This document shows, in pieces, positions 2,858 to 62,840 of a stretch of DNA of 63,083 bases. Position 1 is the stretch's first letter, and every line of letters starts with the position of its first letter. The position numbers and the translations under genes were made by a program. This stretch comes from Ignavibacteria bacterium (GTDB lineage Bacteria > Elusimicrobiota > Endomicrobiia > PHAN01): positions 1 to 63,083 of the forward strand of contig JBGFRZ010000054.1 in NCBI GenBank assembly GCA_041694835.1, read 5' to 3'. Below the pieces are notes generated by a model. The model did not search any database and was not told where the DNA came from. It saw nothing but the letters and a program-made list of their open reading frames with translations.

Positions 2858-4030
2858 ATGAAAAAATTGAAAGGATATTTCGGCAACTTCGGGGGCAGAT
2901 ATGTCCCGGAAACGCTTATACCATCACTCATAGAAGTTGAAAAAGGGTTTTCGGCGGCGATGAAAAGCGTTGATTTCAGGGAAAAACTTTCATTCTATCT
3001 CAGGAACTATGTTGGCAGACCGACCCCTATTTATTATGCTAAAAACTTGACAAATTACTTTAACTCTGCCCGAATATTCCTTAAAAGAGAGGATATTTGC
3101 CACACCGGCTCTCATAAAATCAATAACACCATCGGACAATCGCTTCTTGCAAAATTTCTCAAGAAAAACAGGGTCATCGCAGAAACGGGAGCGGGACAGC
3201 ACGGCGTAGCAACCGCTACCGCCTGCGCTCTCTTTGGATTAAAATGTGTTGTTTATATGGGTAAAAAAGACGTCGAAAGACAGACATTAAATGTCTATCG
3301 AATGAAACTGCTCGGTGCCGAGGTTATAGCAGTTGAGTCGGGAAGTCAGACGCTCAAAGACGCCATAAACGAGGCGTTGCGAGACTGGACTGCAAATGTC
3401 AAAAATACATTTTATCTGCTTGGCTCAGCCGTTGGCCCTCACCCCTACCCGACACTCGTCAGATACTTTCAGTCGGTTATAGGAAGGGAAGTCAGAGAAC
3501 AATTTCTTACTTTGAATAAAAAACTTCCAGATGTTCTCGTCGCTTGCGTCGGCGGGGGTTCAAATGCTATAGGACTTTTTCATCCTTTCTATAAAGATAA
3601 AAACGTGAAATTCATAGGTATTGAAGCGGCGGGCAAGGGCCTTTCGACAAATATGCACGCGGCTACGCTCCAGAAGGGGCGGGTTGGGATTTTGCACGGC
3701 TTTAAGTCGTATCTTCTTCAGGACAGATGCGGGCAAGTGATGGAGACGCACTCCATATCAGCCGGGCTTGATTATCCCGGCGTCGGTCCCGAGCACGCAT
3801 TTTATAAGGAAATCGGAAGGGCGAAGTATTATGGCGCGACGGATAAAGAGGCTATTGAGGGCTTCAAACTTCTTTCGCTTAAGGAAGGTATAATACCGGC
3901 TCTTGAGCCAAGTCACGCCATTGGATATCTGAAAAAAATAATGCCCGGGCTAAAAAAGACTCAGAGTGTTATAGTGTGTCTTTCAGGACGCGGCGACAAA
4001 GACCTTGACATAATCACAAGTGTCCGCTAA
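2858..4030 (+). CDS. trpB: Tryptophan synthase beta chain
   Basis: [29 protein letters not shown] (PLP lysine) and GGGSNAIG. Start set at ATG 2858, because the track ORF start at 2801 lies in the element arm. Confidence 0.95.
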
Positions 4031-4116
4031 AAATATAACAAGGAATTTTGTGTAATTCGTATAATTCGGATCCACTGAAAAAGCCATGCAACCACAGATT
4101 GACACTGTCTTTAGGT

Positions 4117-4306
4117 GAACACAGATGAACTATAGAATACACGGAGAAATAATTTGACAGGATTTACAGGATTAAAAAAATTAGATTATAACCACGAAGG
4201 CACGAAAGCACAAAAAAAAGACTTATAAAAATTTTCGCGTTTTCGTGGTAAAAAAAATTAGACTATAACCACAGGCGAACACAGATGAACTATAGAATAC
4301 ACGGAG
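4117..4306. repeat. ~160-bp tandem duplication within the word-repeat spacer
   Basis: gaacacagatgaactatagaatacacggag occurs at 4117-4146 and 4277-4306. aaaaaaattaga(t/c)tataaccac occurs at about 4175 and about 4253. An internal hairpin is ccacgaaggcacgaaagcac ... gcgttttcgtgg. Confidence 0.8.
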
Positions 4307-19449: not shown

Positions 19450-19938
19450 AGGCAGAGATAAAGATAGAGGTAAAGATGGATGGGTGTGTAAAATCAACTT
19501 ACAAAACTTTTAAAGAAATGACTGTTTGGCGGGATGCTATGAATGTTGCCGAGCATATTCACAAACTTACAGAAAATCTACCAAAAAAAGAAGATTATGG
19601 ATTTACATCGCAAATCCGTCGAGCCGCTTTGAGCATATCAGCCAATATAGCGGAAGCGTATGGCAGAAATCATATTTCCGACAAAATCAATTTTTATTAC
19701 TTTGCAAGGGGTTCTATAACGGAAACACAAAGCCATGTTGAGTATGGCAAAAGAGTTGGCTATATTGAAAAACAAGTTGCAGAATCAATTGACAAAACAC
19801 TGAGTGCTCTCTACAACAACATCAACAAAATCGTGGTAACGCTTAAGAAAACAGGTAAAGAAAATAGGTAGAGGTAGAGAAAAAACAAGTATAAGGTAGA
19901 AGTAGAGCTTATCTTTATCTTTACCTTTACCTTTATCT
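19445..19938 (+). mobile_element. IVS-like cassette: four-helix-bundle gene flanked by complementary ggtaaag / ctttacc word arms
   Basis: Left arm ggtaaaggcagagataaagatagaggtaaag (19445-19475). Right arm cttatctttatctttacctttacctttatct (about 19908-19938), plus a local ggtagaggtagag...ggtagaagtagag block. Confidence 0.6.
19476..19871 (+). CDS. Four-helix-bundle protein (23S rRNA intervening-sequence protein / Avd family)
   Basis: FKEMTVWRDAMNVAEHIHKLTENLPKKEDYGFTSQIRRAALSISANIAEAYGR...FYYFARGSITETQSH is the family signature as I remember it (PF05635-like). Confidence 0.85.
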   Translation: MDGCVKSTYKTFKEMTVWRDAMNVAEHIHKLTENLPKKEDYGFTSQIRRAALSISANIAEAYGRNHISDKINFYYFARGSITETQSHVEYGKRVGYIEKQVAESIDKTLSALYNNINKIVVTLKKTGKENR

Positions 19939-23522: not shown

Positions 23523-23967
23523 GATTAGAGGGTTGGAAGGTTGGAGGGTTAGTAATTGGCAAAGAATCTCTATAAAGATCTTGTTATATGGCAAAAAAGC
23601 ATTGAACTGATCAAGAACGTTTATAAAATAGCTGAATCTCTCCCCAAGTCTGAAGAATTCAACTTAAAACAACAATTAAAACGGTCTGTCGTTTCTGTAG
23701 CGTTAAACATTGCAGAAGGCAAGAATAGACGGACATCAAAAGATTTTGCAAATTTTCTAACTATGTCGGCGGCATCACTTGCCGAAGTTGAAGCTATTAT
23801 ATCAATCTGCAAAGAATTAAATTATCTGCAGGATGTTGACAGTATTTATAAAGACATAGAAAACCTGGGAAAGATGATCAATTCATTCAAGAGCAATCTA
23901 CTTGCAAGGAGTATGTAAATGACAATCCAATCTTCCAACCCTCTAACCCTCCAACCCTCAAACCCTC
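23523..23967 (+). mobile_element. IVS-like cassette: four-helix-bundle gene flanked by complementary ggttgga / ccaaccctc word arms
   Basis: Left arm gattagagggttggaaggttggagggttag (23523-23552). Right arm atccaatcttccaaccctctaaccctccaaccctcaaaccctc (23925-23967). Confidence 0.65.
23556..23918 (+). CDS. Four-helix-bundle protein (23S rRNA intervening-sequence protein / Avd family)
   Basis: YKDLVIWQKSIELIKNVYKIAESLPKSEEFNLKQQLKRSVVSVALNIAEGKNRRTSKDFANFL. TTG start as given in the track. Confidence 0.85.
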   Translation: MAKNLYKDLVIWQKSIELIKNVYKIAESLPKSEEFNLKQQLKRSVVSVALNIAEGKNRRTSKDFANFLTMSAASLAEVEAIISICKELNYLQDVDSIYKDIENLGKMINSFKSNLLARSM

Positions 23968-47256: not shown

Positions 47257-47344
47257 CGGAGAGGGCGAGATTCGAACTCGCGATCCCGTAAAACGGGACA
47301 CCGGTTTTCGAGACCGGCGGTATCAACCACTCACCCACCTCTCC
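47257..47344 (-). tRNA. tRNA-Ser (anticodon CGA)
   Basis: The reverse complement folds by hand: acceptor GGAGAGG/CCTCTCC, anticodon stem CCGGT/ACCGG with loop CT-CGA-AA, a long variable arm, and T-arm GCGAG-TTCGAAT-CTCGC. CCA is not encoded. Confidence 0.9.
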
Positions 47345-47458: not shown

Positions 47459-47917
47459 TCAATTTTTGAATTTCTCGGCGAAATTTCGACGCATCTCCCG
47501 CTCGACATCTTTGCGCTTTTTTGTTTCTTTTTTATCGTACTGCTTTTTCCCCTTCGCCAGAGCAATAAGTATTTTGGCTATCCCTTTTTCGTTGAAATAA
47601 CACTCCAGCGGGACCACGCTGAAACCTTTTTGCGTGACTTTGGCGGTTAGTTTTTTTATCTCGCTTTTTTTGAGCAAGAGTTTTCTGCCACGAAAAGGTT
47701 CGTAGGGGAAATTGGTGACATTGCTATACTGAGAAACATTTACATTTTCCAAAAAGGCCTCTATGCCCGAAAATCGCACATAGCCGCTTTTTAAGTCTAT
47801 CTTTCCCTGCCTTATCGACTTTACTTCGCAGCCGAGAAGCGAAATGCCAGCTTCTATTTTTTCAATTATCTCGTAGTCATGAAACGCTTTTCTGTTTGTG
47901 GCGACAATTTTCGTCAT
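47459..47917 (-). CDS. smpB: SsrA-binding protein
   Basis: ATNRKAFHDYEIIEKIEAGISLLGCEVKS...KGKKQYDKK. Confidence 0.92.
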   Translation of the reverse strand: MTKIVATNRKAFHDYEIIEKIEAGISLLGCEVKSIRQGKIDLKSGYVRFSGIEAFLENVNVSQYSNVTNFPYEPFRGRKLLLKKSEIKKLTAKVTQKGFSVVPLECYFNEKGIAKILIALAKGKKQYDKKETKKRKDVEREMRRNFAEKFKN

Positions 47918-47921
47918 ATTA

Positions 47922-48006
47922 TGCGGAAGGAGGGACTTGAACCCTCAAGACCTCATCGGCCATACGGTCCTGAGCCGTACGCGTCTGCCAGTTCCGCCAC
48001 TTCCGC
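47922..48006 (-). tRNA. tRNA-Leu (anticodon CAG)
   Basis: The reverse complement gives acceptor GCGGAAG/CTTCCGC, anticodon stem TACGG/CCGTA with loop CT-CAG-GA, a long variable arm, and T-arm GAGGG-TTCAAGT-CCCTC. Confidence 0.9.
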
Positions 48007-48644: not shown

Positions 48645-48920
48645 TTATTGAACTTCGCATAATTAGTTGATATTCTGGCTTAACAATTTTGGAGCGAAAC
48701 GAGGAACGAGGAGCGAGGCATACCCTCGGCGGTATGTAAGCGACGAGTGACAAAGTTGTAGCCCAAAAGTGTTAAGCCCCTTCGGGGAGGCAGAACTTTG
48801 GCTGATTTCTGTGTCGTTCGTTGTTTATGTAGCACTGCGGCTACACCGCACTCCTCACTCCTTGAAATCACCTCAAATCTATGCCTCCAAAATGTCAAAT
48901 AATTATGCGAAGTTCAATAA
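48645..48920 (+). repeat. ~278-bp structured palindromic element, copy 2
   Basis: Termini ttattgaacttcgcataattagttgatattctg / caaaatgtcaaataattatgcgaagttcaataa. The core aligns with copies 1 and 3 and includes ccccttcgggg. Confidence 0.85.
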
Positions 48921-59879: not shown

Positions 59880-61193
59880 ATGACACATGCGCGTCATCGT
59901 ATAAAAACAATGATTTTATTGGGAGCCGCAATGTATATATCGCAAACTTTAAACGCATCGTTCTTGAAAGACGTGAAAATCATCAAACTTGAAAACGGCA
60001 TGACTGCTCTTTTTAAGCCCGACAGTTCGTTGCCGATAACAAGTCTGCAGGTCTGGGTCGGCGCCGGCTCGGCTTACGAGGACAAAAATACAAGAGGGCT
60101 TTCCCACTTTCTCGAACACCTCATATTCAAGGGGACAAAAAAATATCCCGGCGACGCCATAAGTCATCTCGTCGAGACAAATGGGGGCGTCATAAACGCC
60201 GGAACATCCAAAGAATACACCGTTTACTACATTGACATACAGAAAGAGGCGTTCGAACAGGCGGCCGACATCCTTGCCGACGCGATGCAAAACGCCCTTA
60301 TGCCCGATGATGAAATTGAAAGGGAAAGACCCGTCGTACTGGAAGAGATAAAGAGGCACGACGACAGCCCTGAAGGTGTTTTATATGACATATTTTCGGA
60401 AACCATTTTCACCGCATCGCCGTACAAATACAGGATTATAGGCGACGAGGAGGTGATAAGGAAAGTAAACCGTCAAGAGATTATGGAGTACTACAAAAAA
60501 TTCTATGTTCCATCCAACATGACGGTTTCTATTGTCGGCGATCTTGCAACTGACGAGGTCGAAAAGATATTGCTCGAAACCTTCGGGAAAATTCCGCACG
60601 GCGAAAAGCCTTTGGATCGCGACATGAAAGAAACCTTGAAACCATCGTTTGAAATTACGAGGCGCAGGAAAAATGTCGCCCACACATACGCCATCTGCGG
60701 ATTTCTCGGACCCAACAACAAGGATGAAAATCAGTTCGCGGCCGAAATATCGTCGATAATATTGGGAGATGGGCACAGTTCGCGCCTCTACAAAAACCTG
60801 AGAGAAAAAAAACAGCTGGTCTATTCCATCGGCTCTTCATACTACGGACAGAAAGGCGACGGTATATTTTCCGTAGCGGCGATTTTCGACAGAAAGAATT
60901 TTGGCTCCGTCAAAAAAGAAGTGGAAAGCGAGCTTTCAAAACTCGCCGGGGAAGGTCCGAGTGCAGAAGAGCTTGACAGGGCGAAGGAGCTCATAAAGTC
61001 GCAGTGGGTGTTTAATCAGGAAAAAGTCCACGATCAGGCGGGAATGCTCGGGTACTGGCATCTTCAGGGGAATCTCAATATCATTGAAGAATTTATGGGT
61101 AAGATAAACTCCGTGACGAAGGAAGATGTAAAAAAATTTCTAAAAAATTATGGGAGCAAGGGCGTAGTATGGGCGCTCGTGGAACCGCAATAA
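59880..61193 (+). CDS. M16-family zinc peptidase (active subunit)
   Basis: HFLEHLIFKGT (HxxEH). Confidence 0.88.
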   Translation: MTHARHRIKTMILLGAAMYISQTLNASFLKDVKIIKLENGMTALFKPDSSLPITSLQVWVGAGSAYEDKNTRGLSHFLEHLIFKGTKKYPGDAISHLVETNGGVINAGTSKEYTVYYIDIQKEAFEQAADILADAMQNALMPDDEIERERPVVLEEIKRHDDSPEGVLYDIFSETIFTASPYKYRIIGDEEVIRKVNRQEIMEYYKKFYVPSNMTVSIVGDLATDEVEKILLETFGKIPHGEKPLDRDMKETLKPSFEITRRRKNVAHTYAICGFLGPNNKDENQFAAEISSIILGDGHSSRLYKNLREKKQLVYSIGSSYYGQKGDGIFSVAAIFDRKNFGSVKKEVESELSKLAGEGPSAEELDRAKELIKSQWVFNQEKVHDQAGMLGYWHLQGNLNIIEEFMGKINSVTKEDVKKFLKNYGSKGVVWALVEPQ

Positions 61194-61231
61194 ATGATAT
61201 CCGCCAGCCAACTACGCAAGAATGCCTGAAC

Positions 61232-61510
61232 TAGTGCTCTGTGCCATAAATAATTGACATTTTGCACGAACGATTTTGGAGCGAAACAAAGAACGAGGAG
61301 TGAAGCATACCCTCTGTGGTATGTGAGCGACGAGTGATGAAGAAGTTGTAGCCCAAAAGCGCCGTGCCCTTCGGGGTTCGTCATCTTTGGGGCATTTCTG
61401 CGTCACTCCTCGTTTATGTAGCACTGCGGCTACACCGCACTCGTCGTTCCTTGAACTGCCCTCAAATCTGACGAACCAAAATGCTCAACTATTTATGGCA
61501 CAGAGCACTA
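61232..61510 (+). repeat. ~278-bp structured palindromic element, copy 3
   Basis: Termini tagtgctctgtgccataaataattgacattttg / caaaatgctcaactatttatggcacagagcacta. The core contains gcccttcgggg. Confidence 0.85.
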
Positions 61511-61517
61511 AACGGTA

Positions 61518-62840
61518 ATGCTTTTAAAGTTTTTACTCTCTACGTTTTACGGCATTTTCTTTTTTTGCTTCCCGCTTCCCGCCGTCAAAGCATCCGCCAC
61601 AACAGGAGGCGATGTGAATATATTCAAGTCATTGAACGGAATAAAAATAATACACCGGAAAATCGACAAATTGCCGATAGTCAGCATCTGCATATTTGCT
61701 AAAGGCGGGGTGCTCTTTGAAAAAAAAGAAAATTATGGCATAACCTCTCTCATGCAATCTCTTTTAACAAAGGGCACAAAAAATCGGAGCGCCGAAGAGA
61801 TAGCCGCCGAAACCGAGAGCATGGGTACGGCTATATCGGCAGGGGCAGACAAAGACTTCGCCACGACAAGCATTTCATCTCTGAAGGAGCATATTTTGAA
61901 AACCGCCGAAATACTTTCGGATGTCATTATAAACCCGGCCTTTGTGGAAAGCGAGATAAAGAAAGAAAAAATTATGGCGATGGCCTCCCTGAAGGCGCGG
62001 AAGGACAAAATTTTCACTGTGGCGGACGACATTTCGAACCTAAGTTTTTACGGAAAACACCCCTATGCTCTGCCGGAAATCGGGACGGAGGAGGCGGTAA
62101 AAAAAATTAAAAGAAAAGATTTGTTGGATTGGCACAAAAAAGTCTACTGCGCCGAAAATATAGTGATTTCTATAGCTGGCGACATAGATGAAAAAGAAGC
62201 ATCGGAAGTCGTCGAAAAATACTTCAAAGATATCCCCTCCGCCAAACCCCTCGGGCAAGCCGAGACGAAAGTTGAAATTAGAAAAAAAGATACGGCTCAA
62301 AAACGAAACTTCAAGCAGGCATATATCATGTTTTCTTATCCCGCCCCAAAGGTCGGCGAGGAAGATTATGCATCCCTGAAACTCCTGGTCGCAGCGCTTG
62401 GCGGCCGCATGTCTGGACGGCTTTTCAGACGCCTCAGAGAGAATCTTTCTCTTGCATACGAGGTAAACGCTTTTTATCCGACTCGGATAGATTCCGGAAG
62501 ATTCACTTTCTACATTGGTCTCGACAAAAAAAATATCAAACTCGCCAGAGACGAGTTTAAGAAGATAATTGAGGAGATAAAGACAGTTCTAATACCTCAT
62601 CAGGAACTTGAGGAGACAAAAAAATATTTGAAGGGCGTTTATATGCTCCAGAGACAGACCGTCGGGAAAAGGGCGTGGTACAACGGCTTCTGGGAGATAA
62701 TGGGGAAGGGAGCCAATTATGACCAAAAATATCTGACTGAACTTATGGCCGTAGAAGCTGAAGAAATAAAGGCCGCCGCTGTCAAACACTTTTCAAATAA
62801 CTCAGAAGTGATTGTTGAAATAATACCAAAAAAACCTTGA
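61518..62840 (+). CDS. M16-family peptidase, non-catalytic-type subunit
   Basis: M16 fold pattern without HxxEH. Paired with 59880..61193. Confidence 0.8.
   Translation: MLLKFLLSTFYGIFFFCFPLPAVKASATTGGDVNIFKSLNGIKIIHRKIDKLPIVSICIFAKGGVLFEKKENYGITSLMQSLLTKGTKNRSAEEIAAETESMGTAISAGADKDFATTSISSLKEHILKTAEILSDVIINPAFVESEIKKEKIMAMASLKARKDKIFTVADDISNLSFYGKHPYALPEIGTEEAVKKIKRKDLLDWHKKVYCAENIVISIAGDIDEKEASEVVEKYFKDIPSAKPLGQAETKVEIRKKDTAQKRNFKQAYIMFSYPAPKVGEEDYASLKLLVAALGGRMSGRLFRRLRENLSLAYEVNAFYPTRIDSGRFTFYIGLDKKNIKLARDEFKKIIEEIKTVLIPHQELEETKKYLKGVYMLQRQTVGKRAWYNGFWEIMGKGANYDQKYLTELMAVEAEEIKAAAVKHFSNNSEVIVEIIPKKP

Follow-up and report, generated by a model that had tools for sequence, protein, structure and literature searches.

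The 63,083-nucleotide stretch of DNA analysed here (the window) carries three copies of a repeat of about 278 bp, which has a conserved interior and ends that pair with each other. A preliminary description, made from the letters alone, left two readings of it: either a structured RNA that rides in operon spacers and is excised at its long stem by a double-strand-specific nuclease, as rRNA intervening sequences are, or a non-autonomous hairpin transposon of the IS200/IS605 (PATE) type that lands in the apex of hairpins already present in the host. The question raised by this locus is what kind of element the repeat is, and whether its pairing belongs to RNA or to DNA. The anatomy of the copies, their homologues in other genomes and the genes around them indicate that the repeat is probably a family of non-autonomous, non-coding, TA-targeting foldback transposons (MITE-like). 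The family is previously undescribed, yet the kind of element is already known, and it is not a new RNA class.

Copies of the repeat in the window and elsewhere

The three copies described earlier, of 276 to 279 bp, were recovered at the same positions and on the same strands, as follows:

2542-2819, - strand: copy w1, 278 bp including its CTAG ends, at the trpF/trpB junction, antisense to both genes
48645-48920, + strand: copy w2, 276 bp, at the junction of exbD and a response-regulator gene; both genes are on the - strand, so the copy is antisense
61232-61510, + strand: copy w3, 279 bp, at the junction of two M16 peptidase genes, sense to both

Pairwise identity of the three copies is 72 to 77% over the element only, and the mean column identity of their MAFFT alignment with short flanks is 78%. 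The conserved interior proposed earlier is borne out by two core blocks, ACCCTCNNNGGTATGTNAGCGACGAG and TTTATGTA-N10-TACACCGCACTC, each of which matches exactly three times in the window with three mismatches allowed and never in 100 shuffles. The terminal inverted repeat is perfect over 21 to 22 bp in each copy and extends to about 32 bp (28 to 30 of 32 positions matching), in agreement with the terminal stem of about 30 bp reported before. The earlier statement that no ORF is conserved also stands: single-base indels inside the core leave w1, w2 and w3 without a common ORF, and the ORFs that are present do not correspond. The parts of copy w3, which recur throughout the text, are as follows:

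61232-61263, + strand: 5' arm of the terminal stem P1 (terminal inverted repeat), pairs with 61479-61510
61264-61280, + strand: 5' strand of P2 (S1, containing GATTTTGG), local pairing with 61350-61366
61281-61304, + strand: purine-rich 5' flank of h1 with GAGCGA-type heptads, proposed G·A/Watson-Crick helix with 61325-61349
61305-61324, + strand: hairpin h1, GCATACC-CTCTGT-GGTATGT, its stem invariant among all copies (the search pattern covered the stem)
61325-61349, + strand: purine-rich 3' flank of h1
61350-61366, + strand: 3' strand of P2 (S2, containing CCCAAAAGCG)
61367-61376, + strand: apex hairpin, CCC-TTCG-GGGG
61377-61397, + strand: 5' strand of P3 (S3), local pairing with 61453-61477
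61416-61433, + strand: hairpin h2, TGTAGC-ACTGCG-GCTACA, five of its six pairs covarying
61453-61477, + strand: 3' strand of P3 (S4)
61479-61510, + strand: 3' arm of P1 (terminal inverted repeat)

The repeat was not recognised as a named RNA family when it was first described, and the Rfam scans gave no relevant match either. At the gathering thresholds of Rfam (release 15), the whole window matched two tRNAs alone; a permissive scan (E up to 10) placed nothing inside w3, and HEARO or IS605-type RNAs were not among the matches. The two tRNA genes (47257-47344 and 47922-48006, - strand) have long variable arms and lie on either side of smpB (47459-47917). The core pattern had no match in the viral contigs scanned, blastn against plasmids and phages found no similar DNA, and a literature search on MITEs of Elusimicrobia returned no description of such an element. 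The window also encodes two "23S rRNA intervening sequence protein" genes (PF05635, four-helix-bundle; 19476-19871 and 23556-23918), which both belong to a polysaccharide biosynthesis cluster and bear no relation to the repeat.

Further copies were found at eight loci from species-representative genomes, six of them named Elusimicrobia MAGs and two named just "bacterium", at three loci in a metagenome scan and, as one additional copy, by a profile search (nhmmer profile of the element) of the DNA that had been fetched. This gives 13 distinct copies, three in the window and 10 outside it in Elusimicrobia MAGs and metagenomes (labelled L below), at loci with a GC content of 36 to 72%. As far as sampled, the family is confined to Elusimicrobiota. 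To our knowledge, almost no mobile elements have been described in this phylum, which gains a phylum-specific mobile repeat.

Copies are usually 274 to 279 bp long, with variants of 229 and 336 bp. The long variant, L001 (6226-6561), has a 57-nt insertion adjoining the apex; this insert starts with TAGGGGGAACCACGGTGTGGTTCCCC, a small palindrome in its own right, and may be a second, nested mini-insertion. In the short variant, L007 (4565-4793; L011 is identical), the interior of the right domain is deleted, which leaves P3 as a simple hairpin, and the apex is lengthened to CCCTTCGGG-TTAG-CCCGAAGGG, a longer palindrome. Genomes carry several dispersed copies: besides the three in the window, copies occur on three contigs of MAG JACQPJ01, and two share one 2.5-kb contig. 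Within one genome, copies are just 71 to 83% identical, and a recent burst is therefore not indicated. Two copies of one MAG, L003 (1750-2025) and L004 (5832-6105), have identical left cores (87 nt, from GATTTTGG to CCCAAAATCG), and a 44-nt stretch of L005 from the same MAG agrees with this core; in the apex, the right domain and the ends, L003 and L004 are 15 to 40% different. This mosaic pattern, similar among w1, w2 and w3, suggests recombination or gene conversion among copies.

Paired helices and equivalence of the two strands

The RNAalifold consensus of ten full-length copies consists of the terminal stem P1, a left domain formed by P2 and h1, the apex hairpin, and a right domain formed by P3 and h2. 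In the same 10-copy alignment, P1, P2, P3 and h2 are paired in 91.2% of cells, against 70.7% in shuffles, none of which reached the observed value (0 of 500); double changes occur in 49 of the 65 pairs of the tested helices, and shifting the partner by one to three columns reduces pairing to 29 to 47%. Covariation supports the long terminal stem P1, the internal domains P2 and P3 and the hairpin h2, and the pairing of all four is kept as the sequence drifts. The double change reported earlier for h2 in the window copies is present as described (gtagc/gctac as against gtatc/gatac). The stem of h1 is kept with a variable loop, as had been noted (catacc/ggtatg; GCAUACC/GGUAUGU in the RNAalifold consensus); all but one of the copies outside the window were retrieved with an h1-region pattern, so that the invariance of this stem is partly an effect of ascertainment.

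Every copy is built as an inverted duplication of a unit of about 100 nt around the small apex hairpin, and terminal inverted repeats of about 32 to 35 bp close it. The profile matches every copy on both strands, and the right domain of L009a is nearly the exact reverse complement of its left domain. Because of this design, single sequences mostly fold as a rod, left half against right half, and this rod is the minimum-energy fold of seven of ten single copies. Its pairing (76.1%) is the same as in shuffles (75.6%), 128 of 500 shuffles being at least as high, and the rod, like a pseudoknot, was rejected as a conserved structure on this absence of covariation. The complementary pairs in the order A-B-A'-B', from which a pseudoknot or mutually exclusive helices had been proposed, are present in w1 and w3 and weak in w2; they are a relic of the inverted duplication, and there is no conserved pseudoknot.

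The apex had been read as a C(UUCG)G tetraloop and as a marker specific to RNA. The ccc(c)ttcgggg(g) sequence does occur in all three window copies, but its exact reverse complement, CCCC-GAAG-GGG, forms the apex of L009a and L010, and L003 has GCGA. The inverted apex of L009a and L010, together with the extended palindrome of L007, weakens the argument from UUCG to RNA, and to judge from their sequences, the inversion and the extension look like palindrome dynamics at the level of DNA.

The purine-rich flanks of h1 show a further regularity. Aligned antiparallel, they present two G·A pairs followed by one or two Watson-Crick pairs, repeated over about 15 positions and leading directly into P2. 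The pattern is found in 13 of 13 copies, 12 of which outscore all of 200 composition-preserving shuffles, and it recurs in the right domain on the opposite strand. Its Watson-Crick positions are the "scattered" pairs of the RNAalifold consensus, three of six with double changes (63:112, 66:109 and 67:108). The context 5'-CGAG-3' is a classic stable one for tandem sheared G·A pairs in RNA and DNA alike. We propose that these heptads may form a helix in which tandem G·A pairs alternate with Watson-Crick pairs, a helix to which folding programs are blind; alternatively, they may simply be repeated, putative protein-binding sites.

The two strands of the element are nearly equivalent. The minimum energies sum to -1817 kcal/mol on the + strand and -1804 kcal/mol on the - strand, there are 84 and 86 G·U pairs, respectively, G·U and A·C are about equally frequent in the covarying helices, and the G·T-type mismatches in P1 are nine (+ strand) and 12 (- strand). 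The fold as single-stranded DNA is strong as well (z = -9.5 relative to shuffles). With respect to the flanking genes, six copies are sense (w3, L001, L003, L009a, L009b and L010), six are antisense (w1, w2, L002, L004, L006 and L008), and one lies between divergent genes. The transcribed strand is the more stable in nine of 12 copies (mean +3.2 kcal/mol, t about 1.4, not significant), a weak hint of a signal at the RNA level. No promoter-like or terminator-like site was found within or adjoining w3. L010 (element at 3914-4188, - strand) alone has a promoter-like TTGCCA...TGGTATAAT, about 15 to 45 nt upstream. As for the first of the two original readings, with its putative excision at the stem, the helices do covary, yet nothing singles out RNA or one strand.

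Insertion sites, termini and target

For two copies of the window, relatives have the matching junction without the element. The nearest of the relatives found has a TrpB that is 86% identical; its trpF and trpB overlap by ATGA and the element is absent, and in more distant Elusimicrobia trpF abuts trpB too; the TrpB of the window itself has no record under exact protein look-up. In relatives, the M16 genes either overlap by 25 nt or have 25 nt between them; at this junction the window is about 325 nt longer. An nhmmer search over 208 kb around the relatives' trpB and M16 homologues found zero copies. The genes at the two junctions carry traces of the insertions:

1923-2576, + strand: trpF ORF, whose last 11 codons and stop codon come from copy w1
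61169-61234, + strand: remnant of the second M16 gene's ancestral start, its ATG overlapping the end of the first gene of the pair (also so in L014)
61518-62840, + strand: second M16 peptidase gene, its ATG 8 nt after the last base of w3, where homology to relatives restarts

The reading frame of trpF extends 34 nt into w1, and the frame that begins at the relic ATG (61169) now ends at a TAG formed by the first three bases of w3. Insertions in the window have in this way rewritten the 3' end of one gene and the start of another; at the third site, the ribosome-binding site of the response-regulator gene lies about 3 nt from the base of the w2 stem. About 38 nt on the 5' side of w3 (61194-61231) and of w1 (2820-2857) are also extra relative to the relatives; both stretches contain TGATATC, perhaps by coincidence.

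Other genes occupy the trpF/trpB junction elsewhere. A relative with a TrpB 76% identical has a gene for DarT plus a Macro domain, resembling a DarTG toxin-antitoxin, between the two genes (L012:659-1837), and another lineage has a SIS/CBS gene there (L017:9015-10001). On these comparisons, the junction seems to accept insertions repeatedly.

The same elements also occur in different surroundings. L002 and L006 are 91% identical, ends included, within unrelated flanks, and L001 and L008 are near-identical elements that likewise have unrelated flanks. All 13 copies lie between protein-coding genes, a placement unlike that of rRNA intervening sequences, which sit within an rRNA helix and are excised by RNase III. 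Ten of the 13 are between co-directional genes, and the neighbours belong to housekeeping operons (response regulator-histidine kinase, znuA-znuB with two copies, hyp with hypF, trp, M16, queC and yidC). Gene pairs with coupled translation are split by the element, namely trpF/trpB, M16/M16, response regulator/histidine kinase and znuA/znuB. At L009 (761-2136), two copies in the same orientation bracket one ABC-3 (znuB-like) permease gene that immediately follows a znuA-like gene, and the element ends adjoin the stop codon of one upstream gene as well as the downstream ribosome-binding sites. Judged from these junctions, the element is shown to be an insertion that landed in very short spacers or overlaps of genes that are apparently co-transcribed.

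The outer ends had been described as specific to each copy. With 13 copies this does not hold, since the outer arms of all of them align to one diverged consensus, (TA)AGGGsyTGTsAAAcAAtAAT.... In every one of the 13 copies the P1 arms match at 25 to 31 of 32 positions, several copies have arms that are perfect over 21 to 33 bp, and the arms stay complementary though about half of the positions differ between copies, even in one genome. The ends of w2, for example, are very unlike those of w1 and w3, yet they form a perfect 21-bp stem. Uncompensated mismatches in the arms are found in the older-looking copies L002, L004, L006 and L007 and in copies with decayed TA flanks, as expected from neutral decay after insertion.

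When the element is delimited as G(K)G...C(M)C, six of the 13 copies have TA on both sides and 12 on at least one side; TA is a palindrome and is inseparable from the tips of the inverted repeats in this count. The apparent targets are CTAG, CTAA and TTAA. In genomes of 64 to 72% GC, where TA is rare, the flanking TA often belongs to the stop codon that ends the upstream gene, and TA flanks in such TA-poor genomes fit TA-specific integration. The left flanks have just T or TA in common, with no conserved tetra- or pentanucleotide 5' of the left end. A duplicated TA is characteristic of IS630/Tc1-mariner elements, and IS5/PIF-like elements typically use YTAR or TWA as targets.

The large ORFs of the window are all housekeeping genes, with no transposase, reverse transcriptase, TnpB, IscB or Y1 enzyme among them, and the Y1 transposase, TnpB or IscB that the earlier hairpin-transposon reading had led one to look for was likewise absent from the scanned neighbours of the other copies. 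No transposase of any type was seen among the scanned genes next to those copies, and no autonomous element with these ends was found. The repeat nevertheless has several of the characters by which MITEs are recognised: it is small, without a conserved ORF, bounded by terminal inverted repeats, dispersed in several copies, and present or absent at orthologous sites.

Origin of the pairing and relation to known elements

The reading as a non-autonomous foldback transposon predicts a TA-targeting transposase (YTAR-like context) that would move the element in trans, as IS630/Tc1-mariner- or IS5/PIF-type enzymes do; the proposed link to these enzymes comes from their target-site preferences. Pairing would be maintained on the DNA element itself, and the arms could have become and stayed paired by either of two routes: only copies able to pair with themselves would be mobilised, or the arms would correct each other. 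Pairing would then be enforced at mobilisation or copying and be followed by neutral decay in place. Once inserted, the element would be co-transcribed in either orientation, and the transcript would carry a long double-stranded stem between cistrons, a candidate substrate of RNase III. Host selection for one RNA strand is a less likely cause of the pairing.

One feature speaks against a MITE of the ordinary kind. Arms that are perfect over 21 to 33 bp while about half of the P1 positions differ are unexpected from a sequence-specific DDE transposase alone. Mobilisation might instead depend on structure and not on end sequence, through a self-paired single-stranded or cruciform intermediate, a version that we regard as unlikely. 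A copy would be competent only if its arms pair, or one arm would serve to correct the other in a panhandle, and the conserved G·A/Watson-Crick helix beside h1 would be a putative site of protein recognition. Structure-dependent mobilisation would explain at once the drifting yet complementary termini, the equivalent strands and the flips of the apex. If it is true that end pairing is needed for mobility, the family is a tractable case of structure-dependent transposition.

The foldback transposon reading overlaps with one in which the element is a cis-acting RNA module selected by the host, its co-transcribed stem being cleaved by RNase III or blocking exonucleases, so that the cistrons on either side would become uncoupled in stability or translation. 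The two differ in where selection acts, since a module would have its pairing kept in place. Strong covariation in four helices, the 10 of 13 copies between co-directional genes, the perfect w2 stem despite its divergent ends and the more stable transcribed strand in nine of 12 copies can all be put down to such a module, and there is a precedent in the cleavage of Correia transcripts by RNase III at their inverted repeats (PMC10969869, PMC2649163). The stability trend is however not significant, G·U and A·C are equal between strands, and the close copies L002 and L006 carry uncompensated mismatches; we consider the module improbable, though it is still a serious competitor. Independent genes for trans-acting structured RNAs have a very low probability. 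The covarying multi-helix structure, the stable tetraloops at the apex and the TTGCCA...TGGTATAAT whose near end is 15 nt upstream of L010 would suit them, but copies lie inside operons, in both orientations and overlapping gene ends, w3 has no promoter or terminator in or beside it, close relatives lack the element, and two strands that fold equally well and match nothing in Rfam are not what such genes would show. For annotation, the family is a caution that strong covariation of helices does not necessarily indicate an RNA gene.

The second of the original readings fares unevenly. Its core, a non-autonomous insertion, is retained in the foldback transposon reading, in that the element is absent from relatives, ends in inverted repeats and occurs as near-identical copies in unrelated contexts. 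Its assignment to the IS200/IS605 (PATE) type, with a Y1 transposase that reads subterminal hairpins of one strand, is contradicted by the anatomy and largely refuted. Strong structure in single-stranded DNA that is conserved under sequence drift would be expected of such an element; long symmetric terminal inverted repeats with TA on both sides, and the lack of strand asymmetry, of a conserved tetra- or pentanucleotide 5' of the left end, of a Y1 transposase, TnpB or IscB encoded in the window, and of an Rfam match to HEARO or IS605-type RNA, would not, and we give this assignment only a slight chance. Landing in the apex of pre-existing host hairpins, with the outer stems as host sequence, accounted for the outer 20 nt or so that differ among w1, w2 and w3. 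The outer arms of the 13 copies share one consensus, however; the pairs L002/L006 and L001/L008 carry the same arms in unrelated contexts, and the empty junctions of relatives are overlapping genes without a palindrome or hairpin. At the tested loci these sequence comparisons refute host hairpins as the source of the stems, and their probability overall is close to nil.

Among known systems, the Correia elements (CREE/NEMIS) of Neisseria are similar in being non-coding, with terminal inverted repeats of about 26 to 35 bp and TA flanks, and in occupying intergenic spacers in either orientation, where the inverted repeats give a long stem; Correia elements are co-transcribed, and the present element probably is. 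Correia elements are generally associated with TA flanks. They are 100 to 155 bp long, whereas the present element is about twice that (275 bp), and no sequence relation is seen. The present element differs further in its two covarying internal hairpin domains and G·A-rich helix and in its phylum, and neither a promoter nor an IHF site was found in it. MITEs of the IS630/Tc1-mariner type (e.g., the pneumococcal RUP) and of the IS5/PIF type (YTAR/TWA) share TA-containing junctions, terminal inverted repeats and the absence of coding sequence, but here the inverted symmetry runs through the whole length and not the tips alone, and no parent IS with matching ends was found. The attC sites of integrons offer an analogy of mechanism only: they too combine variable sequence with a conserved imperfect palindrome, but they are 57 to 141 bp long and form the ends of gene cassettes, and a tyrosine recombinase reads one of their strands by its extrahelical bases, features of which the present repeat shows none.

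Small, non-coding elements with inverted-repeat ends that fold into long stems are a known kind (Delihas 2011, PMC3184786; PMC10969869). The bcr1 repeat of the Bacillus cereus group is likewise small and mobile, with a non-conserved genomic distribution, and its cruciform-like structure is preserved through compensatory base changes (Delihas 2011, PMC3184786, citing Klevan 2007 and Kristoffersen 2011). It is about 155 bp long, has 5-bp direct repeats and is known to be transcribed, as against 275 bp and TA flanks here, and the two repeats are unrelated in sequence.
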